A stretch of DNA of 64,000 nt from Azolla caroliniana (GCA_043228905.1 JBHGNT010000009.1:16740001-16804000), one strand, 5' to 3'; counted from the first letter of the stretch, positions 40,020-61,248 are shown. Numbers and translations are program-made. The notes: generated from the letters alone by a model not told the origin.

Positions 40020-40022
40020 TCT

Positions 40023-40040
40023 TGGTGAACCCGACGTGAA
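40023..40040 (+). promoter_or_regulatory. PBS complementary to tRNA-Trp
   Basis: TGGTGAACCCGACGTGAA. Confidence 0.88.
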
Positions 40041-40062
40041 AGAGGCGGCAAAAGAGTAGGAA

Positions 40063-42189
40063 ATGAAGGGGGCGGATCTTGCAGAGGCCATGGCTTCGGC
40101 CGTGGATCGGATAGTAAGCGCGCGCGAGGGCACCGGCGCCCTCGATAGAGCTATTGAGGCGGTCGTCGGAACGATCGGTCGATTCACCGGAAAAGATGCC
40201 ACGAAGTACCTAGCGTCCTACGGTGCGGAAATGTTAATGCGGGACATTCCGGAAGACAGGCGTCTGGCCGGTTTTCCCCGAGTGGCGATGCCGAGCATCC
40301 ACGCGGAGGTGCTCGAGGTGCGGGCGGAGAGCCGTACCTGGGAGGAGTTCGAAGGTCGGCTCCTGGAAAAATACGGACTGGACGACGCGCTCCGGCTTTC
40401 GAAGCGAAGCTTCATGGAGTGGGTGGAGTCTCCCGGGAAGGGAAGGAATGCGTCGGCACTCCTCCGGGAGTTCGAGGAGAACTTCGCGCGCCTTTCGGCG
40501 CTTGACAGGATGGTCCTGGATACAAGCCGGGTCCTGCTGTTCGTCAAATCGGTTGACGAGAGGGATCGGGGTCACGTGGGCGCCCTGCTAGAAACCGAAG
40601 ATGGGCTGACAACCGACTGGGCGGCGGTCAAGAGAGCCTGCGGCCGTTTCGACAAACGGCGAGAATGGGAGGATGACAGAGCAACCGGGTCGGGCTCAGT
40701 CGCGGCGAGGAAACTCGAGCCGGCGCAGCCGGTGCGAAGGGAAGAGACTCGGGAGTGGCTGGAACCTGGTTCGGCTCCGACCGGCGTGATCGGAGGCTCG
40801 ACTGGGGGAGCTGCGTTGGAGGAACTGACGAGGGCGATAAAAGACCTCCAAATCGCACAAGCCCGCAGAGAAGGCGGAGGACCTGCTCGTGACCGACGGC
40901 CGGCGGCAGGGAACAGGTGCATGTGGTGCGACGGGGTCGGCCACATCCGAAAAGACTGCGGCGATTTCGCAGAGGCGCTGAGGAACCGGGTGGTGTACCT
41001 ATGGGAAGGCCGGGTTCACGCCAACGACACGAGAAGGGCCCTAAACCGAAACGACGGGCGAGGCGGAATGAAGAGGTTGATGGAAGAGGCGGCGGCCCGA
41101 CATGCGGAAACCGTCCACTACTCGGCGTCGGCCGGCATTCGAGTCGGGGGCGGCGAGGCCCGAAAGGAAAGCAAAGCCGGATTCTGGCCGACGATGCTAG
41201 AAGGCCTTGCCGGTGCAGGGCTTAAAAGGGAGGAATCGGACCGTGCGGAGAAACGGGTGCGGGAGATGACCGGGTGGAGCGACCCGGTCGAGGAAAAGAC
41301 GGGCTTCGTGGAAGCCGCTTGCCGGAACTACGAGGCTCTGGTAGAAGAGAAGCGGGTGGGGAAACCCGGGACGACCGGGCCCTCACAACGATACGAGACC
41401 CGGTCCGGGCCACGACGGGACGAAGCCGGCGGGGCCGGTACGCAAGGTAAACCCCAGAAGGGCGGATACCGTCTGGGGACGGAGATAGAAAGAACCACGG
41501 ACTTACGGAAGGTCCTGGAGGAACGGATCCTCGACAGCAAGGTGGAGCTGTCGCTACGGGAGGTGCTGGGAATCGCCAAGAAGGAGTTCCACGACTCCAT
41601 CGTGGACTTGGTGAAACGGAAGAGGCTGTCAACCGAGGCAGAACCGGAAAGTCCGGTGGAAGTGCGGACGACGCACCTGGACGACATGGCGCTGGAAGAC
41701 GAGTGGGCGGAGAGCCACTATTCGCGGCCACACTGGGCCCGAGCGACCACGGAAACCCCGGTAAAGATCGGCGATGTCCAGGAACCGGTAGTAGCTTTGG
41801 TGGACCACGGATCGGAAATCAACCTGATGTCCATGGACTTCTATAAGAAGGGCAAATGGCCGATCAACACCAAGCACGGGTGGAAGATAAGGGCGGCGAC
41901 GCGCGCCACCGAGGAACTTCACGGGGCCTGCCCGAATGTACGGGTCAAGATCGGCGATGTCGAGATAGACCAGCACTTCTTCGTGCAGGAGTCGTCATCG
42001 CACCCCGTCATACTGGGAGAGCCGTACATCACGGCGGCTCGAATGGAGACCAAGGTGCTGGACAACGGTTCGGCCTATGCGCGGGTCAAGAGCCAGGACG
42101 GGCGCCATTCGGTCCAGTTTTTGACGGTTAGGCCGAACCACGAGCGTAACCGCGACTCCCTCGGTTCCGATAACCGAGAGGATTTTTAG
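40063..42189 (+). CDS. gag: Gag-protease polyprotein of element G, 708 aa
   Basis: Uninterrupted ORF with CMWCDGVGHIRKDC knuckle, DLRKVLEERILDSKVELSLREVLGIAKKEFHD (DUF4100-like, from memory) and protease LVDHGSEINLM. Confidence 0.93.
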   Translation: MKGADLAEAMASAVDRIVSAREGTGALDRAIEAVVGTIGRFTGKDATKYLASYGAEMLMRDIPEDRRLAGFPRVAMPSIHAEVLEVRAESRTWEEFEGRLLEKYGLDDALRLSKRSFMEWVESPGKGRNASALLREFEENFARLSALDRMVLDTSRVLLFVKSVDERDRGHVGALLETEDGLTTDWAAVKRACGRFDKRREWEDDRATGSGSVAARKLEPAQPVRREETREWLEPGSAPTGVIGGSTGGAALEELTRAIKDLQIAQARREGGGPARDRRPAAGNRCMWCDGVGHIRKDCGDFAEALRNRVVYLWEGRVHANDTRRALNRNDGRGGMKRLMEEAAARHAETVHYSASAGIRVGGGEARKESKAGFWPTMLEGLAGAGLKREESDRAEKRVREMTGWSDPVEEKTGFVEAACRNYEALVEEKRVGKPGTTGPSQRYETRSGPRRDEAGGAGTQGKPQKGGYRLGTEIERTTDLRKVLEERILDSKVELSLREVLGIAKKEFHDSIVDLVKRKRLSTEAEPESPVEVRTTHLDDMALEDEWAESHYSRPHWARATTETPVKIGDVQEPVVALVDHGSEINLMSMDFYKKGKWPINTKHGWKIRAATRATEELHGACPNVRVKIGDVEIDQHFFVQESSSHPVILGEPYITAARMETKVLDNGSAYARVKSQDGRHSVQFLTVRPNHERNRDSLGSDNREDF

Positions 42190-42247
42190 AGAGGGCTGCC
42201 AAGGCGTGGGGCCGCGACAGTCCGGACACCCCGGGAAAACCCCACAC
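42180..42247 (+). promoter_or_regulatory. Predicted -1 ribosomal frameshift signal: GGAUUUU plus H-type pseudoknot
   Basis: Conserved in E (23486-23548) and F (minus strand, ~36259-36326). pol is in the -1 frame and open from this site. Confidence 0.8.
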
Positions 42248-44032
42248 CTGTACGATAAAACCGAAGAAACCTTGTACCATAGGTAGGGAATTTTTGTTCT
42301 CCGACAGCGGAGCGTGTACGATGGTCGGCATCGGCGGCCGAGAGAAGACAAAGGCGGAGGGGAGGCTTCGAGCGTGCGGAGTTCTCGGCCCGGACGAGGA
42401 AATCAACGGAGTCGTGGAGGCGGTCTCATTCGACGACACCTTGGGAATGCTGGGAAAAGTAGTCGAAGCAGGCCTTAACGAAGACCGGACGATACCGGTG
42501 TGTTCCGAGGAGATGTACGAAGTCATCGCGGACTTCGGTCGAGGGCTCGAGTCAGTTCGGACGGCCCACGTAAGCACCAAGTACAAGACTGTGGACCGGA
42601 AGGTAAGGCCGGTCGCGGCACCCTTACCGGAGGACAGCGCGTCGAGAATCAAAGGGGTTGCATCGGACCCTAGTCTACGAGATCCGGCCTGCATAGGGCA
42701 TACCTTCACCGACGAGACGCTCCGAGAGCTCAAAATCGGTGGGGGCGGGTTCCTACTGCCGGCGGAGGAAGACCGGTTTCGGAGAATGCTCGGAAGGCAC
42801 GGGAGAGCCTTCGCATTCTCGCCGGAGGAAATCGGGTGCGTTGACCCGACGATCGTGGAGCCGATGGTGATATTCACGGTACCGCATGTACCATGGAATC
42901 TCAAGCCAATACCGGTTCCGAGAGCTCACATCCCGAAGTTGATGGAGCTGCTGAGGCAGAAAGTTGATATGGGAATTCTCGAGCCGTCGAGCGCCCCATA
43001 TTCGAATCGATGGTTTACCGTACCGAAGAAAAACGGTTCGTTGCGTTTCATCCAGGACCTGCAGCCGGTCAATCGAGTGACCATTCGGAACGCTGGGATC
43101 GGACCGACCATAGACGAGTTCGCGGAGGCCTTCGCCGGAAGGTCAATTTACTCGGTCGGGGATCTATACTCAGGGTACGACCAGTTCCAGCTAGCCGTGG
43201 AGAGCAGAGACATTACGACGATGCGAACTCCCCTCGGCCTAGTTCGGATGTGTACACTGCCGCAAGGAGGGACCAACTCGGTGGCCCACATGGTGAATGC
43301 GATGAACAAGGTTCTGAGGGACTGTATCCCGGACATCACCATGCCGTTTCTGGACGACATCCCGATCAAGGGATGCCCGGTGGAAGAAAAGGACGAGACG
43401 ATCGGGCCGGACGGATGCCGGCGATTCGTGGCGACGCACATCGACGACTGCGAGAAGGTACTGCAAAGGCTAGAGGAAGCGAGACTCACCTTCTCCGGGG
43501 AGAAGTCGGCCTTCGGGCAGTCAGAAATCATGGTGGTCGGACACCTGTGCGGACCATATGGCCGGAAACCGTCTCCGGCAAAGGTAGAAGCCATCTCCGC
43601 GATGAAGCCCGACTGCAGCTCGGTCACGGAAGTACGGAGATTCCTGGGGGCATGCGCGTTCTACCACATATGGATCCCGCATTACGCACACGTCGCGGAG
43701 CCACTGTACGGGTTGCTGAAAAAGGGGCGAAGGTTCGAATGGCTAGACGAGCACGCGGAATCGGTCCGGGAGCTGAAAGAGGCCCTTGCAGCGGCACCGG
43801 CACTCCGTAAGGCGGTATACGGGAAGGGTACCCCGGTATTCATAACAGTGGATACCAGTCCGACCGGGATCGGATGGGTCGTGAACCAGGAAGACGAGGA
43901 CGGCAATCGGTTTCCGATCCGATTCGGCGCGAAAGTCCTCAGTGAACGGCAGCGAGGATACGCCCAGGTTAAACGCGAACTCTGGGGTATTGTTTCGGCG
44001 GTTAAGGCCGACAAAGACTACCTGATAGGGAC
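42180..44032 (+). CDS. pol: Pol of element G, 5' part (RT and N-terminal RNase H), interrupted by H
   Basis: PYSNRWFTVPKKNGSLRFIQDLQPVN, PFLDD and ITVDTS. It ends at YLIGT, where H begins. Confidence 0.92.
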
Positions 44033-44403
44033 TGTTGGCCGGTCAGAGAAGGCAAATGGGAAAGCAAGGTCGGATCGGATAAATATAGAAATAGGAATAG
44101 AATTATTAGGAGGGACGGATCCGGTAGTTGTAACCGATCCGGATCCGAACCGATTCGGTTTCGGTTAACGGTTGCTTACCGAGCACCGATTGTAATCTGG
44201 CCGGATGCCTATAAAAGGATCCGATGTTTTGTAATGAAAGCGCGAAGAATTAATATAGTTTTGCTTATGCTGATTAATCTTGTCTTCGTCTGTGCTTAAG
44301 TGTAATTATCATACGCGTGTATTAACATCCTATCCCTACCACCCCTTTGGAGAAGTGTCGGATAGACACCTGTGTTGCGGCTAGTCCAGCCATACATACA
44401 ACA
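44033..44403 (+). repeat. 5' LTR of element H
   Basis: TGTTG...CAACA; CTATAAAA at ~44209. Confidence 0.97.
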
Positions 44404-44409
44404 CTATTT

Positions 44410-44419
44410 TGGCGACCAC
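44410..44419 (+). promoter_or_regulatory. PBS, probably tRNA-Arg
   Basis: TGGCGACCAC, 6 nt after the LTR. J has TGGTGACCAC at the same place. The tRNA identity is from memory of plant tRNA-Arg ends (...GUGGUCGCCA). Confidence 0.65.
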
Positions 44420-44455
44420 GATTCCTGCAGAGTGCAGAGGACAACCGGGGGATGG

Positions 44456-47400
44456 ATGTCTAGACAAAATAACGACCACATCACCGAAAGAGGGAGACGC
44501 CACGCCGAACGGCAGCGACGACGGGAAGCCCCGCAGCAAGCCGTCGACGAGATCCGGAGCGATCGGTCATTCTCAACAACGCTTCGGCAAATCGCAGAAA
44601 ACGCACTGCAGTTCCAGGTTCTACAAGCTTCCGACGAAGGCAGTAGCATAACCAGCCTCCAAGAAGCGGAGACACTACTACAGACTCTCGCTGGCGGCGA
44701 CGGGGACGCAGCGGCATTTGCAACATTAGAGGCGGATTCGGATAGCGGGGAAAGCGTGGGATCCCGCTATAAAAGCAGCCACGGGAACAACCCCTTTGAG
44801 TCGGATCACTCAGCAACATCGGAGCCAGAGGAGGAACTAACTCTGGAGTTCGGTGACCGGCAATCGCCGAGGAGGGAGGAGCGGATACCAACACCACCCG
44901 CGGAGGAACCGCAGGAGCGGTTATCAACACCACCCGCGGAGGAACCGCAGGAGCGGATATCAACACCACCCGCGGAGGAACCGCAGGAGCGGATACCAAC
45001 AGCACCCGCGGAGGAACCGCAGGAGCGGATACCAACACCACCTGCGGAGGAACCGCAGGAGCGGAGACCGACATCGGAGGAACCAGCGCAGGAGAATCAG
45101 TGGGACGACACGATGCCGTATCCGTACCCAAAGTATCGGGATGAGCCCGACGGAGAGGCACATGTGTATGCATTCCTGCGAACATGGGAAGCCAACCACG
45201 TGTCCCAGAGACTGACGGAGGCCGAGGCCGACCGATCCAAAGTCGCCGAATTCGGCATGACATTAGAAGGACCGGCGGCCCGGTGGCACGACAAGCACTT
45301 ACCAGGCAGCTTCGCCACGTTCGAGGCATTGAAAACCCAGTTTTTACGCTTGTTTCATAGACGAGTGGAACAAAGGGAATTGGTCGGACAATTCTACACC
45401 ACTCGGCAGGGAGAAAACGAGACGGTCCCACAATTTATCATTCGTTTCCAGACCTTGCACAGTCAATTAGCAAGAGCACCACCCGAAGAGGAGGCCAAGG
45501 CAGTCTTTTTGGCTGCGTTAAAAGACCCACTTCGAGCGATGTGTGGAATCATCGATTTCAGCACCAGCACAATGGACCAAGTCATTGATCGGGTCCTGGA
45601 AATGGACAACACGAGCCCCTTCTTGCCGATGGGGGCGTTACACCAGGCGCTTCCGAAGGAGGAGGACCTCCGGTTCCGACAAGCCCTACAATGCACAACA
45701 TGCCTAAATTCGGGGCACTCGACCGTTGACTGCACCCTGCGCGCACAGTGCATGATATGCAATTCTCGCGCCCACACAACGAACCAATGCGAGTATAACC
45801 TGTTAACTCGACAAGCGGCACCGGTCCGACACATAGAACCGCGCAATCGGGACCCGGAAGAGGATCGATTCCGGAGGGACGACCGCTACCGACGAGAACG
45901 CGGCGACAGATACCCCGATAGAAGACGCGACAGCTATGACCGAGAGGAGAACCGAAGGGATAGCTACCCCCGGGACCGGTACGACCGAGAGGAGAACCGA
46001 AGGGATAGCTACCCCCGGGACCGGTATGACCGAGACGAATCCCCGGAATATGAGCGACGCAGAGAAGAAAGGCGGCCAGGGAACCGGAATTTCCGACGGA
46101 ACCAAAGGCGTGGATTCTTCCGTAGAGAGGAGCGTCGGGAGGCAACAAGGAATGACAAACCAGTCGCGGCACCGGAGAACCGAAAAACCGAGGACAACCG
46201 CCGGGGAATGCCCCTTCCCCGAACATGGGAAAAAGGAGAATCCAGCAACACGCACAGGGTGTACTGTTATTACTGCCGAAAAGAAGGGCATTACAGTAAT
46301 CAATGCCCAAGCAAAACAGCCGACAAGCAGCCAGCAGTCAACATGGTGACAGCCGAAGTACAGCAGGTTACCACGCGGTCGAAGGGGAAAGCCGCCGAAT
46401 GGGAAGCCCAGGAAGCAATCAGAAAACAAGCGGCACAATGGATCAAAGAAGCCAACGAACAAGGTGCGGCGGAAGTAAGAAACCAAAATATGCCAAGGGA
46501 GGAGGAAATCGTACAGCCAGGAGAAAACCCGACATGGCAAGCACTACAAGATTGTCAGATCGTGCTGCCGTTGGCACGGTTACTACAGTTGGTGCCGCGG
46601 TTCACAGCAGACTTACAAGCCGCCGTGAGCAAACCGACGCCGACGCCGGCACCGGCATTTTTCTCCAACCCGGAGGAAGGCCCAGCGGTGGTTGATACAA
46701 GTAGCCCAGCAATCACGACAATCGTCAAAGGAAAGGAGATTCCAGGAACAATTATTGACGGAGGCTCCGGGGTGAACGTCATTAGTCGACAGACATGCGA
46801 CGACCTTGCCGACTTTGCGACACCATTGCACGCTGCTGTACATAGAGTACCTTTCCAATGGACAGAAACGGAGGAGGCAGCCTACCAAGCGTTGCAGGTC
46901 ATGCTGTCACAAGCTCCGGTGGTGCAGCCGCCGGACTGGAGTAAAAGCTTTCACGTCTTCGTCGACGCGTCGGACGTAGCAATCGGCAGCGTTTTGATGC
47001 AACTCACGGAACCGAAATGGTATCGGCCGGTGTACTACGCAAGCAGGAAACTCTCGAAAGCCGAACGGAACTACTCTACAACGGAACGAGAGGCATTAGG
47101 AATGGTGTACAGCGTCACAAAGTACAGGCACTATCTGCTCGGACGAAAGTTCTCATTCCACGTTGACCACTCGGCGCTACTCTACCTGGTGTCAAAGGCA
47201 GCCCTGACAGGAAAACTCGCACGGTGGACGCTGCTATTACAGGAATTCGAATTCGACATTTTCCACCGACCCGGGGTGCAGCATGCGGTAGCAGACTACC
47301 TGAGCAGACTAGAATCCGGAGAATCAGGGGACGGCGTACAGGACGAATTTCCCGACGCCGAGCTGTTTAAGGTCACGACGGCACCGGCAACGGAAACCAC

Positions 47401-48781
47401 AGTAGCGGACGAAGACAAATGGTTAACCGAAATGCATCAGTTCCTGAGCACCGGAGTTCCCCCGGAAAACCTGGACCGAGACGAACGGAAGAGGATGGCA
47501 GTACGGAGCAGACATTTCTGCTTGGTAGGAGACACCCTCTATCACAAGGGGGCAGATGGCGTATGGAGGCGAGCAGTGCGGAGCGATGAAAAGGATCTGA
47601 TCCTGAGGGAAGCCCACTGTGGAATTGCAGGCGGGCATTATGCCGGTGAAACAACAGCCCGGAAGATATGGCAGAGCGGACTATGGTGGCCGACTACCAT
47701 GAGAGATGCCGTTAAGTATAGCAGGGAATGCGACCTGTGTCAACGACTGGGCCAACCCACGGAGCAGGCCCGGATGCCACATCACCCGGTCTTGCCATTA
47801 GAACCATTCCAAAAGTGGGGCTTGGACTTTGTCGGCCCCTTTAAGCCACCGGCAATGCGGACCGGAAATCGGTATATAATAGTGGCTACCGACTACTGCA
47901 CCAAATGGGTAGAAGCAAAGGCACTACGGGACAACACGGCGGCGTCCACGGCCAAATTTTTATATGAATGCATATGGTGTCGGTACGGATGCCCGATTGA
48001 GCTGATCAGTGACCAGGGAGGACATTTCCTCGGGCAGGTGGTGGAAAGTTTGACATCATTCTATGCGGTAGTACACAAACGAAGCACTCCCTACTACCCT
48101 CAAGCCAACGGATTAGCGGAATCAACAAACAAAACGCTACAGAACATCCTTAGAAAAATCGTCAATGAGAACCGGACCGACTGGGACACGAAGTTGCAGA
48201 GCGTGCTGTGGGCGTACCGAACGGCGTACAAGACTAGCATCCGGACGACCCCGTTCCGACTGGCATTCGGCTTGGAAGCAGTCATGCCAGTAGAATTCCA
48301 AATTCCTAGCTTAAGAATACAGGTTAAGGAGCGGTTAAGCGAGAAGGAATCCGAACGAATCCGGCTGAAGATGCTGTTAGAACTGGAAGAAAATCGAATA
48401 GCCAGCCTGCTACAGCTAGAACTAGAGCAAAGGAGGAGGAAAGCCTTTGTAGACCGACACCGGCGCGGTAACGAAAAGGAATTCGAGATCGGGAAACCGG
48501 TATTACTGTTCCAGACAAGGATGGGGAGCATGCCAGGGAAATTGCGATTTCGGTGGACCGGACCATTCTGGATCACAAAGGAGTACAATGGGTCTTACCA
48601 GCTCGGGACGTTGTCAGGAGAAGTTGTGGGCAAATGGGCAAATGGTTTTCGCCTAAAACCGTATAAGGGGCACATGCCAGCTAACCCCTTCAAGCAAGAA
48701 CCGACACCGACGCGTAACAACGACGAGGAACCGACAACAGTGCGCACCGACCCGAACACATCGGGGGGAACCGAACAATGA
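44456..48781 (+). CDS. gag-pol: Gag-(truncated protease)-RNaseH-integrase polyprotein lacking the RT catalytic domain, ~1441 aa from the first in-frame ATG
   Basis: Capsid (TLEGPAARW...QGENETV), three CX2CX4HX4C knuckles, PR start IIDGGSGVNVI fused to ADFATPLH...FQWTE, RH VFVDASD, IN PFQKWGLDFVGP / ISDQG / NGLAE, and RWTGPF. No (Y/F)xDD motif. Confidence 0.93.
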   Translation: MSRQNNDHITERGRRHAERQRRREAPQQAVDEIRSDRSFSTTLRQIAENALQFQVLQASDEGSSITSLQEAETLLQTLAGGDGDAAAFATLEADSDSGESVGSRYKSSHGNNPFESDHSATSEPEEELTLEFGDRQSPRREERIPTPPAEEPQERLSTPPAEEPQERISTPPAEEPQERIPTAPAEEPQERIPTPPAEEPQERRPTSEEPAQENQWDDTMPYPYPKYRDEPDGEAHVYAFLRTWEANHVSQRLTEAEADRSKVAEFGMTLEGPAARWHDKHLPGSFATFEALKTQFLRLFHRRVEQRELVGQFYTTRQGENETVPQFIIRFQTLHSQLARAPPEEEAKAVFLAALKDPLRAMCGIIDFSTSTMDQVIDRVLEMDNTSPFLPMGALHQALPKEEDLRFRQALQCTTCLNSGHSTVDCTLRAQCMICNSRAHTTNQCEYNLLTRQAAPVRHIEPRNRDPEEDRFRRDDRYRRERGDRYPDRRRDSYDREENRRDSYPRDRYDREENRRDSYPRDRYDRDESPEYERRREERRPGNRNFRRNQRRGFFRREERREATRNDKPVAAPENRKTEDNRRGMPLPRTWEKGESSNTHRVYCYYCRKEGHYSNQCPSKTADKQPAVNMVTAEVQQVTTRSKGKAAEWEAQEAIRKQAAQWIKEANEQGAAEVRNQNMPREEEIVQPGENPTWQALQDCQIVLPLARLLQLVPRFTADLQAAVSKPTPTPAPAFFSNPEEGPAVVDTSSPAITTIVKGKEIPGTIIDGGSGVNVISRQTCDDLADFATPLHAAVHRVPFQWTETEEAAYQALQVMLSQAPVVQPPDWSKSFHVFVDASDVAIGSVLMQLTEPKWYRPVYYASRKLSKAERNYSTTEREALGMVYSVTKYRHYLLGRKFSFHVDHSALLYLVSKAALTGKLARWTLLLQEFEFDIFHRPGVQHAVADYLSRLESGESGDGVQDEFPDAELFKVTTAPATETTVADEDKWLTEMHQFLSTGVPPENLDRDERKRMAVRSRHFCLVGDTLYHKGADGVWRRAVRSDEKDLILREAHCGIAGGHYAGETTARKIWQSGLWWPTTMRDAVKYSRECDLCQRLGQPTEQARMPHHPVLPLEPFQKWGLDFVGPFKPPAMRTGNRYIIVATDYCTKWVEAKALRDNTAASTAKFLYECIWCRYGCPIELISDQGGHFLGQVVESLTSFYAVVHKRSTPYYPQANGLAESTNKTLQNILRKIVNENRTDWDTKLQSVLWAYRTAYKTSIRTTPFRLAFGLEAVMPVEFQIPSLRIQVKERLSEKESERIRLKMLLELEENRIASLLQLELEQRRRKAFVDRHRRGNEKEFEIGKPVLLFQTRMGSMPGKLRFRWTGPFWITKEYNGSYQLGTLSGEVVGKWANGFRLKPYKGHMPANPFKQEPTPTRNNDEEPTTVRTDPNTSGGTEQ
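44874..45065 (+). repeat. In-frame 36-bp tandem repeat (QERIPTPPAEEP, ~5 copies) in the Gag N-terminus of H
   Basis: caggagcggataccaacaccacccgcggaggaaccg repeated. Confidence 0.92.
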
Positions 48782-48793
48782 TGCGGCATATGT

Positions 48794-48819
48794 AAAAAAA
48801 AAAAAAAAAAAAAAAAAAA
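48794..48819 (+). repeat. Poly(A)26 tract just after the pol stop of H
   Basis: Direct observation. Confidence 0.95.
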
Positions 48820-49224
48820 GATGATGACGTGGTGCTACGGGTAGAAAAGTCAAGACCAGAAGATCAAGAAAATCATGGTAATGATGAAGGAGGTAGTTAC
48901 AACCGTCACACGGGTGCACGAGCTATTTAAAGCACAGAACGTGGGGGCGCCGAGGTACAGGACTTAATACGTGCGTCAATTAAGGAGTCATAATGACAGA
49001 CACGTAGGAGATTCGACACACGCGGCAAAGAAACGCAAGCATGACACGCGGCAGCAAAAATAGGACATACTATTCATGACACAGCATGCGCAGGCGCCAA
49101 AAATAGGACATATTATTCGAGGCAGAGGACGTGCAGACGTCGAAATTAAAAAGTAAGATGCTAATTATGGCAGAAGATACGCACGCGCGAAAAACAGGAA
49201 AAGGCGGCTCGAGGGAAACGCCAC

Positions 49225-49232
49225 TATATAAA
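49225..49232 (+). promoter_or_regulatory. Putative internal TATA box for the accessory ORF
   Basis: CTATATAAAGG ~140 nt upstream of the ATG at 49368, preceded by several ACGT and ACGCG motifs. Confidence 0.55.
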
Positions 49233-49367
49233 GGAAGAACCGGGGAAGGGTTCACTTTTTACGAATTTTCCCACAAGCAAACGCAGGCTCATGACAGCAA
49301 GATCCGACGCGCAGAACACCTACACCCCGACCTCAGACCACAGGCAGCAGCAAACGAAGAAGAAGCG

Positions 49368-52310
49368 ATGGCACTGTCGGACGGAGCGCGACAATGGCTG
49401 ACGGAGAACGGATTAGGAGGGCTGCTGCGGGTCGCTGACGCTCCACCACACAAGGAACCAGAGCAGGCGGCAACAGCGGTGGACTTAGCAGAGGTCACTG
49501 AAGGAGCGGTACAAGCGCTCACAGGGATTTCGGAGGGAGGACTTCAAACAATAGAGCTACCCTCGAGCCAAATATTCTTCGAGTATTTCGGCGAATATTC
49601 CCTTAGCAGCAAGGCGTATCGCACACAGGGCGGAGAGAACCTGCTGTTCGGAGCGGTGGCCCGCGCCCTGATGGAGTACGGGTTCGTGAACCCTCGTCCG
49701 GCAGCCATAGCCAAATACCGAGCAGCGATCGTCATCGCGACATTCGAAGGCCTGCAGGTGGACTGGCTCCACTTCATCACCGAAGGACTAAAAGAGGCGA
49801 TCAAGCACTTGGTGGAAGGGAAGAAGCCATGGTCCGGAATATCCCAATGGTTAACAGTGTTGGTCCCACCGGTGTCTCCCATCAAGCACAAGCAAAGAAG
49901 TCGGCAGGAGACTACCCCGAAGCAAACCATGAAACGCCGACGAATCCTAGAGAAACACACTCCAAGATGGACACAGGAAGAAGAAGCGCCGCGGGAAGAA
50001 GGATCATCCCGACAGCCGCGGGAAGAGGGATTATCCCGACAGCCACGGAAAGAAGGCTCATCTCGACAACCGCGGGAAGAAGACTCATCCCGACAGCAAA
50101 GGGAGGAAGGCCCATCACGGCAGCCACAGAAACAGCAACAGCAACCGACAATGAAGAAGAAAAAGGCGGAAAAAGGCAAGGAGAAGGTGGCAAAGAAGAC
50201 CGGCAAAAGGCAAACCGACACCGAACCAGTAACGCTCGAATCGGAACCGGTACCAGTAAAGCAACCAATAATGGCACCGACGGAGGACGCTGAAACAGAG
50301 GAAGACTCATCCGAACCGATGTTAATACTACCACCCAGGCAAGGAAAGGAGAAACGAGCGACAAGACCGACCCCAACAGCGGACGGAACTCAGCAAAGGG
50401 CAAAAGAACCGCCTCCAGTAACCGGAACAGAAGCGACACAGGATGAAGGTCCGTCTGCACCAAACACGGCAGTACCGGAACCGACGGCGGCGGAGTTCGA
50501 AGAACAAAGAAAGGAACAAGCGCCGGAACAAGAGAAGAGGCCGGAGAAACAGCCGGAAAAATAGCCGGAGCTAGGCACGCCTGCTGACACCAACGAAGGC
50601 AGAACAAAGGCACAATGGCTAAGGTTGTTGTCAGAGCAGTTGTCGGGAGTAGCAGACCAGATGGAGAAAGAGGAGGAGCAAAGAGAAGAAGTGACTAGGA
50701 CGATGACTAAGGATATGGTCATGCTCCGGGCACAATTACATGAGCTGCAAGAAGAGCTAGCACAGGCAAAAGAAGGTAGCCGACAAGCACAAGATGGCAC
50801 CGAGCCGGTCGGGACATCTGAAAAGCAAGCCGAACCAGAAACGGAGAGGGCCTTGCAAACCGGCCCTGAGACCGAGAAGTTAATAGCAACTTTGAAAGAA
50901 GAATTACAGGCTCAGGAGGCATTGAGAGATAACGAAAGAGAGCAGCGGAAGTTGGCAGAAGACGACAGACGGCGAATGGAGGAAGGCCTTCGCCGAAGCA
51001 AAGCCACCAATGACCGACTACAAGAAGAAAACGGGACACTGCAAAAGGAAAAAGATAGGCTGCGCCGACGAATGGAGCAGGAAATTGAGCGGTTGCGAGA
51101 GGAACTCCGACAACAAAAGGACCGGGATGATCAGTTGCGAGCTCAGGCGAACCGACGCCTAAAACAGAAGACGGAGGAATTCGACAGACTATGTAAGGAT
51201 TATAAACAGGCCACGTCGGACATCAAGAATCAGGCAGCAACGTACGACCGACAGTTAGAAAAGCTGAAAGAGCAGCTCAAGGAAAACCGCTTGGAATTGT
51301 CCAAAGCAAGGGAGGAAGTATCGGTGGAGAAGACCTTGACGTCGGAACAAAGAAAGGAGATGGAAGTACTTCGGCAGAAAGTAGGGGAGCTGACAAAGAG
51401 CAGGAATGAGGAGAAAGTGAAGTTGACTTTCGAAATCAACAAATGGCGGAGTACCTGTGACAAGCAGAAAGTCGACTCTGAAGCTCAAGCTCAGTTAATG
51501 GCCGACATCATCAAACGGATAAGGAAGGAAAAACAAGCAGCTTCGGAACAGGCTAAAGCAGGGGTTGACCGAATTAAGTTCATCATGTCAAGCTGGAGTA
51601 CCCGAGCTCAGGCCAGCATAAATGAAAGCACGGAGAAACTCTGGAAGGAATGGGCACAACAGGCAGCTGAACTGCAGACACTCCGAGCTGATGCAGAAAA
51701 TCGGAAGAAAACTGGAGATGCGTTCTATAAAATGGACGAAGAAAGTATCGTCAACATCCGGGAAGAACTGTCGGAGGATTTCTATGCTCTAGCAGAAGAG
51801 CATCTCAAGGAAATCCGAGGGTTAGTAGAGAGGTTGGATGACGGGCAGCTCGAAACCCAACTAGAATTGGAAGGGTACGAGAAGGACCGACTGCGACAGG
51901 AAGCCGCGGGACACACAACGCCGATCTCCATTAGTGAGGGCGAGCGACCGGCTGAAGAGGACCCAACCAACATTGCACCCCGACAAGAATTACCCGAGGA
52001 AGAACTTCCGGAGCAAGAGCAGGTTGATGCCGGGGATGATGCAGAGTGGAGACAGAGAAGTACCGAATCCGGGGAGGAAAGGACACAACCAGTGGAAACC
52101 GGAGAAAGCGGTACCGGGAACGGAACGGAGGTAGAGCAGGACAGACCCGGACAGGATACAGAAGAAACACCGGTTCTACCGGTAGAAGCAGAGTCGGAGC
52201 AGCAAGATGCGGAAAGGCAGCCAATCCAATCGGACGTCGGAGACGGCACAGGCAAAACAACACTTGAAACCTCGGAGCGGAGTTTGCCTGATAATTTGGA
52301 GGAAGACTGA
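49368..52310 (+). CDS. Accessory protein of H (~980 aa: globular head, disordered linker, long coiled coil, acidic tail); one in-frame TAG at 50562-50564
   Basis: ORFs 49131-50564 and 50625-52310 are in the same frame, separated only by a TAG within a QPEK repeat. Homologous to J 57984-60755 (YFGEYSL.SK.YRTQG; IATxEG..VDW; WAQ.AAELQ.LRAD..NR). Confidence 0.85.
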
Positions 52311-52360
52311 AGCCGGCTGTGGGTTCGAAGTGCAATGCACTTTCCCACGGGCGTGCCATG

Positions 52361-52731
52361 TGTTGGCCGGTCAGAGAAGGCAAATGGGAAAGCAAGGTCG
52401 GATCGGATAAATATAGAAATAGGAATAGAATTATTAGGAGGGACGGATCCGGTAGTTGTAACCGATCCGGATCCGAACCGATTCGGTTTCGGTTAACGGT
52501 TGCTTACCGAGCACCGATTGTAATCTGGCCGGATGCCTATAAAAGGATCCGATGTTTTGTAATGAAAGCGCGAAGAATTAATATAGTTTTGCTTATGCTG
52601 ATTAATCTTGTCTTCGTCTGTGCTTAAGTGTAATTATCATACGCGTGTATTAACATCCTATCCCTACCACCCCTTTGGAGAAGTGTCGGATAGACACCTG
52701 TGTTGCGGCTAGTCCAGCCATACATACAACA
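52361..52731 (+). repeat. 3' LTR of element H
   Basis: Identical by eye to 44033-44403. Confidence 0.97.
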
Positions 52732-52736
52732 GGGAC

Positions 52737-54381
52737 AGAAGTGATCATCGAGACGGATTGCCTGCCGATTCTCGGTATGGTTTCCGGGTGCGCGACTCCG
52801 GACCTGGCGATGCTCAGGTGGATAGCGTACATCAAGTCCCTGGATCCGGAGATACGACACATTTCCGGGAAAGACAACGCCATGGCCGACATGCTTTCGA
52901 GGGCGAGGTTCGACGACGAGGGCGGCATGGTTTCGGAAGACGAAGAAGTCGGCGTGGATTTCTTCGAGGCGGCATACATAACGACCGACGGGATGAGCAC
53001 TCCGGCGCTTAACGAGTTCGACGCGAGCAAGTACGACGGGGAGTGGCTGCAGATCGGCGGGTTTTTGAAGACAATGACGCCCGATGCGTCAAGGACGAAG
53101 GACGAGGCCAACCGGATCCGGAAGAAAGCATATCGATTCTTTCTCCGAGATGGGCATTTGTGGAAGCACCCGAAGAAGAGGAACGGCGTCCCGCTCCGGG
53201 TGGTGGCGATGAAGGAAGAACAGGAGGAGCTACTGGCGGCCTACCACGACAGCCCTTGGGCTGGACACCGTGGAACGTGGGCGACATTTGAGAAGCTGAA
53301 GGGGAAGTACTGGTGGCCGGGGTTGTACCAGGACGTGCATCGGTTCGTGACAACTTGCGAGAGCTGCCAGATTCACTCCATAGTCCGACATCGAGACGAG
53401 CTTCACCCTACGTACCCTCCGGCCATCCATTTCAAATGGATGGTAGATCTGGTGACGATGCCGATGGGGGTAGGACAGATGCGGTATCTGGTCCTAGCGC
53501 GGGAAGACCTGACGAACCAGGTGGAAGGCCGAGCCCTTCAGAACAAGACGACCGCGGCCGTGTGTCGGTTCCTGATCGAGGACGTGATATGCCGGTACGG
53601 GTGCGTCGGGAAGATCGTGGCTGACCGAGGGGAGTTGGACGCCGAGGAAGCCGCGGAGCTGTTCGATCGGCTGGGAGTCAAGCTCTCGCTCACCACTGCG
53701 TACAACCCGGAGGCGAATGGAAAGGTGGAGCGCGGACACGGGCCGATCGTTAAGGCGCTGGTTCGGGCATGCGGAGGCCAAGTCGGTAACTGGCCGCGAC
53801 TTCTACCTTATGCTTTGTGGGCAGACCGGACCACGCACAGTTCGGTAACCGGGTACATGCCGACGGAGCTCATGTTCGGCCAGAAGCCGATCATGCCGAT
53901 TGAACGGACGATCTCCTCGTGGGCAACGGTCGACTGGAGGGACGAGATGAGCCGGGAGGAGTTGTTGACCGCACGTATACGACAGCTCGAGCGGAGACCG
54001 GAGGACGTGGCACTGGCTACGGAGAAGCTCCGGGTGGCGAGGACAAAGAACAAAGCCCGGTTCGACCGAACGCACCGGCTACGACCGAAGAAAATCGACG
54101 AAGGTGACTGGGTGCTCGTCTACGACAGCAGCCTCGACAACCAGCACCGAGCAACGCGGAAGTTCGCACGGAGATGGTTCGGGCCGTACACGGTACAGAG
54201 CGCCAACGACAACAGGACGTATCATCTGGCGGAGCTCGACGGTACGAGAATAGCGATACCCGTGGCCGGGAAGAGGATCAAAGCTTTCAAGAAGCGGCAC
54301 GACGACGAACCCGACCCGATTCTCCTGGACAGCAGCGACGACCGATCCGAGGCCGAGGAAGGGCCGGCAGGCGAAGAGTAG
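52737..54381 (+). CDS. pol: Pol of element G, 3' part (rest of RNase H and integrase)
   Basis: Resumes EVIIETDCLP in frame with YLIGT; HDSPWAGH..CESC, ADRGE, NGKVE and WFGPY. Confidence 0.93.
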
Positions 54382-54453
54382 AGGCGGGCCGGTTTTCTCC
54401 GTGCCAACTTAATTTGGCGCATGCCGGTGGATGCGCAGTTAGGTGGGGGCGGA

Positions 54454-55158
54454 TGTCGTGAAGAAAACCGCCCACAAGAGGAATCGGAGGAACAAGGCGT
54501 GGGAAACGGCTCTACACACACGCGCGCGCCAAGAAGTACCTAAGGACGAAGTAGGTACATACGAGGATCCTAGGTGGGTAGATTCGGTTAATGCCAAACG
54601 GCCTCTTGACGGGCTATAAAAGGAAGAGGAAGAATAGAAGTGGGGGATCTCCCGCGGAGAGGACGAAGTGCTGCCGAACCGATTTCGGAGCTTCTCTCTC
54701 ACTCCTGCTCTCTCTGTCTTCTGCTCCATCGCGTACCTGTGCAGGTTTCGAGGAGGCTCGCGCTGTTCCGTGGAACGCCCCGAGTGCGTCCTGCAGCACC
54801 TCCGACCTGTTTTCCCTTTCTGTGCGTCGCGACATACGGGGGTCGGCAGCTGTTCGCCGCCCTGTTCGTTTCATTAGTATCTATTTTGTGCCCCACCGTG
54901 GGTTGTAATACTTTAGTCTGTTATTTTCTTGCATTCGTAAGTACATATCTCTCGCTGTTGCGTCCATCTGCGTCGGCGTTTATTTGTGATCTCTGTTTGT
55001 TGGGCCGTGTCCCTGTGCAATCGTCGGTTCTGCGCAATCGGATCTTCGGTTCTGTGTAATCGGGTCTCTCTCTCTTACTCCTCTCTCTCTTGCTCTTCGG
55101 TTCGAGACCCCCGTGGTCCCTCCTCCTTTCTACACGCAAGGGCGTAGAAACCCCGACA
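54454..55158 (+). repeat. 3' LTR of element G
   Basis: Direct repeat of 39315-40019, preceded by AGGTGGGGGCGGA. Confidence 0.97.
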
Positions 55159-55162
55159 ACGC

Positions 55163-56143
55163 GGAAGACATAGAAACCGTAGTCCCAAGAACCGGGAGAA
55201 GTCAGGGACCCGGTGAAAGTCAAGGGGGAGACCTACTTGCTTCTATTGCGGCAAGCCGGGACACTTCCAGAAGAACTGTCGGCATTTCCGGAAAGACAAG
55301 GAAACCGACGGTACCGATTCGAAGTGGACACTGGACCGGAATGGTAAAGGCCGGAGGGGGCCGGACCGGAAGGGGACGACGGCAATCGCGGCAAGTGAAG
55401 AAGAGCTGATGCTCATCACCGAGGAGAGTGAGATAAACCTTGCCGGCGACGAGATGACCTGGGTGGTAGACTCCGGAGCGTCGTTCCACCTTACCCCGGA
55501 CCGGAAATGCTTCTCATCCTACTCAGCCGGTGATCACGGCTATGTCTGGATGGGGAATGAAGGTACATGCCGAATTGTCGGCATAGGAGACGTGTGACTG
55601 ACAACACCAACCGGATGCAAGTTGCTGTTGAAGGATGTTCGACACGTTCCAGAGGTTCGTCTGAACCTGATATCAGCCGGTCGGCTAGATGATGAAGGCT
55701 ACACGGGTAGCATCCGGAACGGTGTCATGAAGTTCAGCAAAGGGAGCTTGATTGTGGCTCGGGCCCGGAAGGTCAACACGTTGTACCTGATGAACGCCCG
55801 GTTATGTCCAGAAGAAGTGAACGTGGCATCTGACACTACCGGTGAGCTGTGGCACAAGAGGTTGTGTCATATGAGCGAGAAGGGGATGAAGAGGCTTGCA
55901 TACGACAACCTCATTCCAGTGAAGAACGTGCACTTGGAGAAGTGCACTGATTGTCTGGCCGGTAAGCAAAACCGGACCTCCTTCCGACCAAGGCCACCGA
56001 TGAGACGTAATGCACCACTGGAGTTGGTGCATACGGATGTGTGTCAAGTAGACACGAAGTCACATGCTGGAGCGCAGTACTTCGTGACATTCATAGATGA
56101 CCACAGTTGGAAGCGGTGGGCCACACCGTTGAAGACGAAGGAT
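55163..56143 (+). pseudogene. gag-pol: Element I middle piece: gag zinc knuckle, protease and integrase N-terminus
   Basis: CFYCGKPGHFQKNC (~55238), WVVDSGASFH, LWHKRLCHMSEKG and LVHTDVC. Confidence 0.92.
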
Positions 56144-56577
56144 TGTTACCGGCCGGCAAAGGAGTCCAGAGTGGGAAACGGAGAGCTAATTAAGTAGTAG
56201 GAATGTGGTTGTAATTAAGCTATGAGTGTGGACGGACGGACCGGAATCGGTATGCCGTTCCGGATCCGGACCGATCCCGAACAGGTGCGGATGGCACCGT
56301 TTTGTAATACAGACCGGAAACTTATTTAAAGGCCCGGATACAATGTAATAGTTAGCGGTTAATTAATGAAAGCTTAAGCGTTGTTATCTCTCTGTGTTAA
56401 TTGCCGTTCTGTCGTAATTGTTATATATTACGCGTGTTATGAAAGACGATCCTAATAAGTAACTTAATTAAGTCGGATTAAGCGTTGAAGTCTAATCCGG
56501 TTGCCGTAACACCCTTTGGTGAAGTGTCTCCCGTAGACACCCTGTGTTAGGCCATTGTTCGGCCCGAAGAGTTAACA
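56144..56577 (+). repeat. 5' LTR of element J
   Basis: TGTTA...TAACA; direct repeat of 60810-61243. Confidence 0.96.
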
Positions 56578-56630
56578 CAGTTTTTGGTGACCACGATTCC
56601 TGTTTTTGAAGCGAACGACGGCACGGATGG

Positions 56631-59600
56631 ATGTCTAGATCAACGCACGACCTGGTTACAGATCGAACTCGACGCCTTGCCGAAAGGCAAAGGAGACGCG
56701 AGGCTTTCCAGCAAGCGGCGCAGGAAATTAGAGCGGATCGCTCGTTTTCCAACGTAATCCGGAGGCGGAGGACTCCCTCTGGTTACAGCAAACATCGCAC
56801 CTGGACGACGGCAGCAGCCTAAGCAGCCTCCGGGAAACCGAATCCCTTCTCCATGCGTTGGCAAACGGAGAAGGCGAAGCAGAGGCCTTTTCAGCATATG
56901 AATCGGACTCCGAAGGGGAATACAGCGTGCACACGAACTACTGTAGCAGCAACGAAACCCCGGGCGGACCGGAGGACGAAGGATCAGATACCTTACCGAC
57001 ACCGGAACCGGAACCGGAAGTGCTAATGCTGGAACCCCCGGAACCAGCAGAGGAAGAACGACCTCCAACACCGGAAGTCGAAGAGGAGAGGCCTCCGTCA
57101 CCAAAGGAAGAGAAACAACCGACACCGGAATCAAATCGGGAAAGACCACCGACACCGGAGAAAATTCCGGAACGAGCACCAACACTACCAGCCTGCGCAC
57201 CGATACCGGACGACGACATGCCGTTCCAGTACTCCAAGTATAGAGATGATCCGGACGCGGAAGCTCATGTGCACGCCTTTGAACCGACATGGGAAGTCAA
57301 CCATGTCTCCTAGCGATTGACCCCAGAAGAAGAAGAACGCTCTAAGATAGCGGAATTTGGCGTCACATTGGAGGGACCAGCAGCAAGATGGCGCCGGACG
57401 CAGGACCCGTCTACCATCAACACCTTTGCAGATTTAAAAGCTAAATTCATGCATTTTTTTCAAAAGGAGGTGGACCAGACCGTAATGGTAGGCTTATTTT
57501 ATACCATCCGGCAAGAGGCAGGGGAGAGCATTCCCCAATTTGTCATCCGGTTTCAACAGATGCATAGTCAGCTTGCCCGTGCACCCTCGGAGGAGGAATT
57601 ACGGACGATATTCCTAAACGCGCTCTAGGAACCCCTACGCACGGTTTGCACGGTAATCGATTTCCGCACAAGTACCATCGACCAGGTCATTGACCAGGTG
57701 AGAGATGGAAAAGACAAGCTCCTGGCTCACACTGGGAGCACTTCAATGGGCGTTACCGTCCGATGAAGACCTTCGGTTTCGGCAAGCAATACAGTGCACA
57801 ACCTGCTTGAATTCCGGACACTCGGCTCTAGAATGCACTATGAGGACGCAATGTGTAATCTGTCAATCCAAGAGCCATACGACGGATAAGTGCGAGTATA
57901 ATCTGTTGAATCGGCAAGCACCGCCCATCCGACAAATTGAGCCACGCAGCAGCCGGGATGAAGAAGACGAACGTTGGCGGCGAATGGACCCGCAAACGCT
58001 GTCGAAAGCCGCCAAGACATGGCTGAAGCAACACGGGCTCGAGGGCTTCTTGATGATGATGGAAGTACCGCCACACAAAGAAGCCGACAAAGTGATCAAG
58101 GAAATCGATACAGAGGTCATAACGGCAGAGGCGATTCGAGCGTTAACAGGCCTTCCGGAGGGAGGCATACTCACGATCGACAATCCAACCCCGGAGCAAC
58201 TCATCAGGTATTTTGGTGAGTACTCTCTAGCCAGCAAGGGCTACCGGACACAGGGCAGCGGAGATATGCTGTTCCGCGAAATTGCTCGTGTGCTCCATGA
58301 ATACGGCCACGTGTACCCTAGACCCCCTGTCATGCCGCAGAACCGGGCAAGGATGATCATCGCCACCTATGAAGGGATCAAGGTGGATTGGCCAGTATTG
58401 ATCGCAGACGGGTTGTGTGCGGCGATCGAGATCGTCAGAGGCAAAGACGGCAAAGAAGGCCGAGACGGACGAAGGATATGGCACGCCGTAACAAAGTGGC
58501 TCACCTTGCTGGTGCCACCCGTTCAGACCGTCCAGCCCAAGAAGCAAGGAAGAGTGGCGGACGGCACCCCAAGGACGGCTTCCAAACGGCAACAATTGTT
58601 GGCCTCTAAGGCCAGTAAGGGAAAGGCGGCGGATGTAGAACAGGAGGCAGCAGGAAGCGGCAGCCGGAAGTGCCCAACGGAGGCGCAGGAGGAACCACCG
58701 GCACGGCCCGTAAAGGTCACACTCCGCCGACTGGTGAATCGAGAAATGGACCCCTTGGCGGCAAAACTCAATGCCGGAGCTCAGGAGGAGGAAATAGAGG
58801 AGGAGCCTACGGAGCACCTCCAGCGACGGTCGTCGGCAAGGACCGTTGAGACAGCCGGGAAACGTTCGGACCCTCAAACGGAGGGAACACCGGCTCCCCA
58901 TACTAAGACTCCCACGCCAAGGAAGGAACCGGAACCAGTGCAGATGGCACCGGAAACAGAAGCCCCGGCACCACCGGCAACACCGGCAAGTCCCATCCCG
59001 CCAGAGCCGGAAAGGTCACTGCAGCCTCCCTCGGTCAGCCAAGAAGAAGCGCAAGGGGAACCAGGACAGCATGATGGTCCACGGGCAGAAACGGAACTGC
59101 AACTCGGCGCAACCAGGTGGGACTACCCCTCTACAAGTGAGCCCATCTATCAAACCTCCGTGCAAGCACAACAAGGCACCGGTAGCCTGTGGCTCTGGTG
59201 GATAGGCGAACAGATAGCCGGAGCAGTGGGGTATATTGAGGCGGAAGAAAGAGTGCACAGCGAACGGTTGCTCGTCACAACCGAACAATTAGAGACGGCC
59301 CGGTCCAGAATCCGATGCCTTGAAAAAGACTTGGATCAGGTCACGACAGAGATGGCCAAAATACGGATCCAATCACTGGTGACTCCGGTAAGTGTACAGA
59401 ATAAAGAAACGGAACGACTTGTACATAGCAATAAGACCCCTGCAACGGAAACCGTTCCAGCGAGAGATACGGCGCAAGCTCAGGAGCTTGCGGAATTGAG
59501 AGAGGAACTTGCCGCACAAGAAGCGCTAAGGAGCCGTGAACGAGAATTGAAGACGGCGGCCGAAGCCGAATTAAAGAAGACTGCTGAGAACCTCCGCCGG

Positions 59601-60755
59601 GCAGAGGAGAGCCTCCGGAAAGGCCATCAAGCGTACGACCGGCTAAAGGAGGAGAAAGACAAAGTGCAACAGGAAAAGGACAAGCTGTAGAAAACGGCGG
59701 AAACAGAGATGGAACGGCTAAAGGAAGAGCTCCGCCAGCAAATGGACCGCGAGGACCGGGCCCGTCGTCAGATCAACGCATGGCTCAAGCAAAAGACGGA
59801 TGATTTTGAGCACCTACACCGGGACTACAAACGGCTGGAAACGGAGCATAAAGAACGGATGGCCGAGCTCCAGCAGGCAGTTGATTGGGCCGCGACGGCG
59901 ATCGCCGACGAACGAGCGGAAAATACAAGACGCTTGGATGAGGCGGAGAAGGTCCGGATGGAACTCCAGAGGCAGCAGCAGGAAGACAAAGAGAGAGCGT
60001 CAACAGTATTGCAGAAATTACAAAGCACATATCAAAGGCAATTGACGCATTACAAGGTGCAGGCGGAGGACAACGTCAAAATCATCAAACAACTGAAGGA
60101 GGAATGGCAAGCGGCGGAAACCAAATCGCAATTGGGAACGAGCCGGATTCAGTCCATCCTCCGGGCATGGCTGAATCAGACAAAACACTTGATTGATGAA
60201 AGCTCCGTAAAATGGTGGACAAAGTGGGCACAAAACGCGGCGGAACTCCAGTTGCTACGGGCGGATGTGGCAAACCGGCAGAAGGAAGGAGATGACTATT
60301 ATACGTTGACTTCCGAGGACTTCACCGCCATACGGGACGAGCTGGCTAACGACTTCCAAGTCCTGGCAGATGAACAGCTGGCGCAGGTCAGGCAGCTTGT
60401 AGCTCAGCTGGACGATGATAGGCTGGACGCTCAAATCCAGTTTGAAAACTACGAGCGGTCCCGGGTGCGGGAAGAAAAAGCACGGGAAGCGGCAACGGTT
60501 AACCTTAGTGATGAGGAACTGTCGCTGGCTGAGGGCCAGCCAGGAACCAGTCAACCGGAGACCACTATGACGCAGGGAGCAATGACGGAGACGCCGATGT
60601 CAGAGCCACAATCGGAGGAGCAGCCGCAGCAACCACCAACGGACCCGCTGCAGCAGACTACAACAGAACAGCAACAACAACAACAACAACCACTTCCAGA
60701 TGAACCATTGGAGCCTCTCGAACAAAGCATTCTGGACATTTTGGACGAAGAATAG
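56631..60755 (+). pseudogene. Gag::accessory coiled-coil fusion of J (3 TAG stops, ~2 frameshifts)
   Basis: Fragments 56631-56822, 56858-57313 and 57317-57628 (Gag, aligning to H), 57705-59690 (two zinc knuckles running into MDPQTLSKAAKTWLKQHGLEG), and 59709-60755 (coiled coil, same frame). Confidence 0.88.
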
Positions 60756-60809
60756 CAAGGGTCGGTTGTGGATTCGACGTACAAGGTACTGTCCCATGGG
60801 CGTGCCATG

Positions 60810-61243
60810 TGTTACCGGCCGGCAAAGGAGTCCAGAGTGGGAAACGGAGAGCTAATTAAGTAGTAGGAATGTGGTTGTAATTAAGCTATGAGTGTGGACG
60901 GACGGACCGGAATCGGTATGCCGTTCCGGATCCGGACCGATCCCGAACAAGTGCGGATGGCACCGTTTTGTAATACAGACCGGAAACCTATTTAAAGGCC
61001 CGGATACAATGTAATAGTTAGCGGTTAACTAATGAAAGCTTAAGCGTTGTTATCTCTTTGTGTTAATTGACGTTCTGTCTTAATTGTTATATATTACGCG
61101 TGTTATGAAAGACGATCCTAATAAGTAACTTAATTAAGTCGGATTAAGCGTTGAAGTCTAATCCGGTTGCCGTAACACCCTTTGGTGAAGTGTCTCCCGT
61201 AGACACCTTGTGTTAGGCCATTGTTCGGCCCGAAGAGTTAACA
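60810..61243 (+). repeat. 3' LTR of element J
   Basis: Direct repeat of 56144-56577. Confidence 0.96.
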
Positions 61244-61248
61244 AGGAT

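Follow-up and report, generated by a model that had tools for sequence, protein, structure and literature searches.

It is well known that gypsy elements outside the chromoviruses carry extra open reading frames (ORFs) and that VANC proteins resemble the PMD. The function of the extra ORFs of plant LTR retrotransposons is described as an open question by Vicient and Casacuberta (PMC7264820). VANC, the accessory protein of the VANDAL (MuDR) DNA transposons (PDB 9LNJ, 9LNK), binds short motifs and removes methylation, and its conserved domains are split by variable, tandemly repeated linkers (PMC5735166). A coiled-coil region is predicted for VANC21 (PMC13547354) and VANC structurally resembles the PMD of MAIN/MAIL1 (PMC13547354; bioRxiv 2024.09.27.615353). 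The PMD (PF10536) occurs in the host proteins MAIN, MAIL1 and MAIL2, which act on chromatin at DNA motifs (PMC5418596; bioRxiv 2024.09.27.615353), and as PMD-A in Ogre; this gypsy-borne domain was reported to be like the DUF1985 of VANC (bioRxiv 2024.09.27.615353). Ikeda et al. called the ancestry of the gypsy-borne versus the host PMD 'fully open' (PMC5418596), and a 2026 atlas argued that VANC stems from captured MAIN-like genes (PMC13547354).

Among the other gypsy elements with extra ORFs, Athila elements are non-chromoviruses that have neither an additional RNase H nor a chromodomain, a single gag-pol frame, a 5-bp target duplication and a sense extra ORF after pol (PMC6317226, PMC11728184). 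In the REXdb tables their primers are tRNA-Asp/Asn/Ala (PMC6317226). The antisense ORFs of the Tat elements Retand and Grande encode a globular domain and a coiled coil, and lie behind pol and ahead of the 3' LTR (PMC11963269, PMC7264820), and for Grande gene23 an internal promoter of its own and a nuclear location have been shown (PMC7264820).

We analysed a 64,000-nucleotide stretch of the Azolla caroliniana genome (GCA_043228905.1 JBHGNT010000009.1:16740001-16804000), called the window below, in which two gypsy elements, H and J, carry an extra gene that we call ORF2. Like VANC, ORF2 is a transposon-encoded accessory protein with a coiled-coil region and a variable, tandemly repeated linker between conserved domains, and the VANC21 fold is predicted over its whole head. 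It differs from VANC in belonging to an LTR retrotransposon and not to a DNA transposon, in its shorter domain with 8–10% identity, and in having no DUF1985 or DUF287 match and apparently no general motif arrays. Its likeness to the PMD is indirect, through VANC21; no sequence match was found and the head is half the length of the Pfam model. Moreover, most PMD ORFs of Ogre run antisense, and they lie in Tat elements with an additional RNase H (PMC5418596), and this second RNase H family of Tat elements (Ogre, Retand, TatI-III) was not found here with Pfam. The ORFs of Retand and Grande differ from ORF2 in being antisense, in lineage and in their Pfam domain, Transposase_28, which is unmatched here; their coiled coils are SMC-like (PMC11963269). 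The elements share with Athila the features listed above, predicted nuclear signals and, as described below, language-model leads, but have a tRNA-Arg primer, no PF03078 or PF20167 match, no transmembrane helix, no purine tract, and a coiled-coil region of ~450 residues with its own conserved block. Compared with the REXdb tables only, the lineage is therefore Athila-like in layout and Tat-like in primer (PMC6317226).

Results

Structure of H and J

Element H (44033–52731) has LTRs that are identical over 371 bases and a 5-bp target duplication, GGGAC. The LTRs of J (56144–61243) match at 427 of 435 compared positions and its target duplication is AGGAT. The features of both elements are given in Table 1. 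H is nested in a different gypsy element (39315–54753), which has near-identical LTRs and is interrupted in its RNase H region; J is nested in a copia pol gene (55900–63084). No polypurine tract is present ahead of the 3' LTR at 52335–52360 in H or 60785–60809 in J; both of these sequences finish in GGGCGTGCCATG, followed by TG.

Table 1. Coordinates in the window of the parts of elements H and J.
Feature	Position	Strand	Remarks
5' LTR of H	44033–44403	+	371 bp, TG...CA
Primer-binding site of H	44410–44422	+	Complementary to host tRNA-Arg(TCG); starts 6 nt past LTR
gag-pol of H	44456–48781	+	Single frame; private in-frame deletion of ~1.5 kb
Non-coding spacer of H	48782–49367	+	Likely (putative) internal promoter of ORF2
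A-tract in H spacer	48794–48819	+	
TATTTAAAGC in H spacer	48924–48933	+	
TATATAAA in H spacer	49225–49232	+	TATA; initiator-like TCA follows, A at 49254
ORF2 head of H	49368–49883	+	172 aa, mostly helical, globular; VANC21-like fold predicted
ORF2 linker of H	49884–50564	+	Basic NLS-like clusters, 9-aa tandem repeats, Pro-rich; closes with private stop
ORF2 coiled-coil region of H	50565–51902	+	Putative coiled coil, from sequence
Conserved C-terminal block within coiled-coil region of H	51465–51902	+	WAQQAAEL at 51651
ORF2 acidic tail of H	51903–52310	+	Short conserved hydrophobic/acidic motif at its end
3' LTR of H	52361–52731	+	No purine tract ahead
5' LTR of J	56144–56577	+	
gag of J	56629–57983	+	Broken and truncated; fused by private 4.8-kb deletion straight to ORF2 ATG
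ORF2 of J	57984–60755	+	923 codons; conserved block at 60225
3' LTR of J	60810–61243	+	

In H, ORF2 occupies 980 codons (49368–52310) on the sense strand, following pol and preceding the 3' LTR. Across 201 aa, the heads of H and J share 43% identity (E 2e-52), and a C-terminal block, WAQ..AAELQ.LRAD..NR, is common to both proteins. The initial annotation was thus correct in describing a sense ORF of ~980 aa after pol with a homologue in J, and the motifs that it quoted for the head and the C-terminal block are present. It was also correct that the protein has no transmembrane stretch and is not an Env, since the maximum 19-residue Kyte–Doolittle mean was 0.9–1.3 in four subfamilies and no segment reached transmembrane strength.

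Both elements are defective. H lacks RT entirely and PR for the most part (junction at ~46803–46806), and J has lost everything from the middle of gag to the ORF2 ATG, including pol and the ORF2 spacer (junction 57983/57984); its gag carries stops too. ORF2 itself is interrupted by an in-frame TAG at 50562–50564 (codon 399) in H and at 59688–59690 (codon 569) in J, and no stop was found at the corresponding position in any relative where this position was locatable (24 for H, 10 for J). Therefore, neither window copy encodes the full protein, and of the idea that H lost PR/RT and J all of pol while both kept this gene, the losses are borne out and the keeping of an intact gene is not. Programmed read-through of the stops was ruled out, as they are private and at different places in H and J.

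ORF2 is a standard gene of an autonomous lineage

Searches of the 523-Mb genome with the two heads gave 4524 (H) and 4486 (J) first-look candidates and at least 150 matches each. Among the matches listed, 83 heads belong to the subfamily of H (H1, at least 93% identity) and 48 of these lie within stop-free frames of at least 985 codons. RT, RH and INT were upstream of ORF2 in all 26 fetched H1 loci. In a second subfamily, H2 (81–83% identity), the RT of the family was upstream in 12 of 14 loci. The J-like loci comprised 12 of 20 with RT, one without RT-INT and seven cut by nested insertions. At least three distant subfamilies (head identity 30–41%) had INT in place upstream of the head in 18 of 20 loci, with the same gene order where readable, and most had the C-terminal block. 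The order LTR-gag-pol-ORF2-LTR, with ORF2 between pol and the 3' LTR, was seen in every subfamily examined. Full-length relatives have a gag-pol of ~1950 codons with RVT_1 present and a complete gag with its own zinc knuckle; Pfam found no additional RNase H or chromodomain in the 1950-aa polyprotein. In public collections the head has 169 relatives (50% clustering) and the C-terminal block 242 matches, and none of those listed had an informative name. The elements form an abundant and autonomous Ty3/gypsy lineage outside the chromoviruses, and ORF2 is its regular second gene. Many of the relatives are, like H and J, inserted within other retrotransposons. One relative, L038, showed a CpG observed/expected ratio of 0.85–1.34 across all element parts, which means no CpG depletion and fits young age or low methylation.

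To measure selection we used pairwise Nei–Gojobori comparisons of real H1 and H2 copies because synonymous sites are saturated between H and J. The dN/dS was 0.11 for the ORF2 head and 0.09 and 0.07 for the coiled-coil parts, compared with 0.11 for gag and 0.04 each for RT and INT. Values for the linker (0.43) and tail (0.55) were higher. Within-subfamily values for the head are biased by the choice of loci, which was based on head similarity and, for many of the H1 loci, on open frames. ORF2 is under purifying selection, and the initial annotation had proposed selection on the protein; its statement that the linker and tail diverge freely was too strong.

When 20 heads were compared with their integrases, the trees gave the same main clades and pairwise identities were correlated (Spearman 0.80); the head has changed at several times the rate of INT. 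ORF2 has thus long belonged to the lineage, descending vertically together with the integrase, and H and J are not independent acquisitions, as had been supposed; the gene came to both with pol.

H1, H2 and J all have a tRNA-Arg(TCG) primer site. In three copies (L031, L047 and L088) 18 nt match the end of the host tRNA, compared with 13 nt in most copies, and the extended match may have arisen when the primer was copied during reverse transcription. Two members of distant subfamilies, L129 and L133, have the primer sequence TGGCACGCCCGG, unlike H and J.

The head is predicted to have a VANC21-like fold

We aligned the head with its relatives (110 rows, from 108 of 150 listed matches); P0136, a TPR protein, was removed as a false match. 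An AlphaFold model from this alignment (model 1) had a pLDDT of 94.4 and pTM of 0.88, and a model of a 36%-identical head from another subfamily (model 2) had a pLDDT of 90.3 and pTM of 0.86. The two models are not independent because most of the alignment is shared. With VIA-align, the best match to both was VANC21 bound to DNA (9LNK): Z 6.1, rmsd 3.6 and 163 of 172 residues aligned for model 1, and Z 6.3, rmsd 3.5 and 168 of 174 for model 2. It was the only match above Z 2.5, the score of the next rows, among 48,161 PDB representatives. The VANC21 structure paper is reportedly that of Tanaka et al., 2026. The head aligns to residues 305–533 of VANC21 only, is ~60 residues shorter and is 8–10% identical; a Z of ~6 at this identity is modest and falls short of the value that the tool itself advises for helical domains. 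This middling score gains weight because of the near-complete coverage (95%), the gap in Z of 3.6–3.8 and the fact that VANC21 is itself a plant transposon accessory protein.

With Foldseek, VANC21 was the top match for model 1 (E 1.8, TMq 0.44; Z 5.8 after realignment) and the 50th for model 2 (E 9.2), where its TMq of 0.48 was the highest listed; neither E value is significant. The ESM Atlas gave language-model leads to Transposase_32 and ATHILA clusters at 0.84–0.88, below the 0.9 mark. Pfam found no match to DUF1985, PMD (PF10536), Transposase_32 (PF20167) or ATHILA (PF03078) in the 110 heads, no DUF287 in these heads or the full ORF, and only sub-threshold coiled-coil noise in both full ORFs and 13 C-terminal blocks. 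Sequence searches of the PDB with two head profiles gave nothing below E 0.07, and a fold search of viral protein models (BFVD) with the head gave no match. Genome searches with PF20167 and PF10536 returned nothing, but neither did their controls, and this result does not indicate absence. Three genomic matches to PF09331 (E 0.7–0.8) were discarded; they fall in loci of an unrelated gypsy pol and have no score against the head profile.

These data predict that the head shares the VANC/PMD fold. A VANC/PMD-like head had been guessed from sequence patterns, and the guess agrees with the sole structural match and with the language-model leads. Unnamed extra ORFs of plant retrotransposons repeatedly contain the pattern IT...I..ALGLP..G and G..(V/I)DW.

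Outside the fold, the conserved basic columns of the head are K82, K116, R118 and K152 (75–93%). The linker carries basic clusters, KRRR at 189 and KKKK at 263, which may serve as nuclear localisation signals, and the tail ends in ..DIL.. or ..DNL.. in several subfamilies. One sequence with a stop, L132, was left out of the C-terminal alignment.

The spacer upstream of ORF2

The element TATTTAAAGC was present in the spacers of 24/25 H1, 10/12 H2 and 10/10 J loci. A TATA followed ~29 nt on by an initiator-like TCA was found in 25/25 H1 and 11/12 H2 loci, and in 0/10 J loci. The last 165 nt (55 codons) ahead of the ORF2 ATG show low divergence and a dN/dS of 1.2; they are conserved as DNA and not as protein. 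An N-terminal extension from the ATG at 49158 was rejected on this value, and on the Met at 49368 being the aligned start in distant homologues. These features of the spacer suggest that it may act as an internal promoter of ORF2, like the one described for Grande gene23 (PMC7264820).

Over 25 loci, the H1 spacer contains two to four copies of a degenerate 43/49-bp repeat unit carrying GACATRCTA, a type of unit present once in H2 and absent from J. In H1 this resembles a VANC target array on a small scale (PMC5735166). In four other subfamilies (one element each; the H2 LTR is partial) no 7–8-mer was enriched above shuffles. In this sample, VANC-style motif arrays do not appear to be general in the lineage. 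Right after the pol stop, H1, H2, J and L133 have a variable A-rich/AAT-repeat tract, often flanked by TGACGT, which is possibly a nucleosome-free or terminator element.

Discussion

A shared fold by itself shows no function. The reading we favour, tentatively and at somewhat less than even chance, is that ORF2 is a DNA-binding regulator of the nucleus, with a VANC/PMD fold, through which its own family stays transcribed despite host silencing. ORF2 would be transcribed from the internal TATA/initiator promoter in the spacer, with translation probably starting at the ATG at 49368. The protein would be imported into the nucleus through the basic clusters behind the head. The head may then bind family DNA, in the LTR or the spacer, the coiled coil may drive oligomerisation, and the conserved C-terminal block and acidic tail could recruit host chromatin or transcription factors. 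Against this reading stand the modest structural scores, the missing Pfam match, the net acidic head of H, the J spacers that lack the TATA and initiator, the apparent lack of general motif arrays, and the copies that have an open pol but no head.

A broader claim is possible yet doubtful: that in LTR retrotransposons, within an old lineage where no PMD, DUF1985 or Transposase_32 can be recognised, the element itself encodes a sequence-specific anti-silencing factor with the VANC/PMD fold. If it is true, the VANC/PMD fold is an ancient retrotransposon module from which the extra ORFs of Athila and Ogre, MAIN/MAIL and VANC could descend, and the 'env-position' genes of plant gypsy elements are counter-defence genes, not envelopes. 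The literature searched, which left most subscription papers outside its coverage, contained no VANC-like fold or anti-silencing system in an LTR retrotransposon. The compact 172-aa head, the young intact copies and the diverged subfamilies in one genome allow a direct test of subfamily-specific DNA binding and silencing relief; heads that bind subfamily-specific DNA and lift silencing would mean an anti-silencing system in an LTR retrotransposon.

The same fold evidence would serve a role for ORF2 in the integration complex, as its tether to chromatin or its nuclear-import factor, with the head on DNA or chromatin and the coiled coil bridging to integrase or cDNA so that insertions are steered to repeat-rich regions. 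Such roles for extra ORFs are proposed by Vicient and Casacuberta (PMC7264820). We think this somewhat unlikely. In its favour, the integrase has no chromodomain match and H, J and many relatives are nested in other retrotransposons, but nested insertion is common in repeat-rich genomes, and the acidic tail, ending as it does in a hydrophobic motif, bears a closer resemblance to a regulatory recruiting module.

The place of ORF2 in the env position, its sense strand and its long coiled coil could instead indicate a cytoplasmic scaffold, RNA chaperone or movement factor, 'env-like' but without a membrane anchor. A domain of Athila is predicted to form pentamers via coiled coils (PMC13547354), and the head of H is net acidic (13 K/R versus 19 D/E). 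This is unlikely, given that the sole structural match is a DNA-bound nuclear protein, that the head has no match among viral protein models, that NLS-like clusters follow the head, and that the elements have a complete gag, zinc knuckle included.

It would be a fairly improbable outcome for the fold match to be a helical coincidence and for ORF2 to target a host protein, such as a silencing or RNAi factor, and bind no nucleic acid. The modest Z, the non-significant Foldseek values and a head that evolves several times faster than INT, as conflict proteins do, would be expected in that case. However, the match spans 95% of the domain and stands 3.6–3.8 Z over all other rows, VANC21 is another plant transposon accessory protein, and independent language-model leads point to Transposase_32/ATHILA.

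The initial annotation proposed that enzyme-less elements preferentially keep ORF2 in a helper/satellite-like system. We examined retention in 88 H1 gag matches, anchoring on gag to avoid selecting for ORF2. The head was at full-length spacing in 57 copies, at long spacing in eight, which we took as nested insertions, and at short spacing in five, where parts of pol are missing but the head remains; 18 had no listed head. Seven of these 18 kept pol with the head cleanly deleted, three had lost both, three were full length and five were interrupted or cut. In several copies pol is still open and the ORF2 head is absent. Losses of pol only and of the head only (5 versus 7; binomial p 0.77) showed no bias, so deletion derivatives do not keep ORF2 more often than pol. 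Breakpoints were all different among the deletion copies, and the junctions of H and J each occur once in the genome. Thus, the satellite idea fails. An amplified single deletion form, the mark of non-autonomous satellite LTR elements, was not found, and H and J are one-off deletion or decay products of autonomous families. That pol-less elements retain ORF2 for the benefit of the carrier copy is very improbable: besides the five short-spacing copies it has one further J-family case (L068) in its favour, and against it are the reverse losses, breakpoints of which no two are alike, the single H and J junctions, the stops in both window copies and the missing ORF2 spacer of J. A regulator that keeps its family transcribed would act in trans, and the single copy encoding it would gain nothing from it, in agreement with the lack of bias among the deletions.

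At least 15 of the 88 young H1 copies have undergone large, clean internal deletions, each with a breakpoint of its own, a high rate for elements that are 96–100% alike. In one copy (L092, G000:C18:5053177-5063176) a deletion has brought pol and the C-terminal part of ORF2 into one reading frame of more than 2300 codons.
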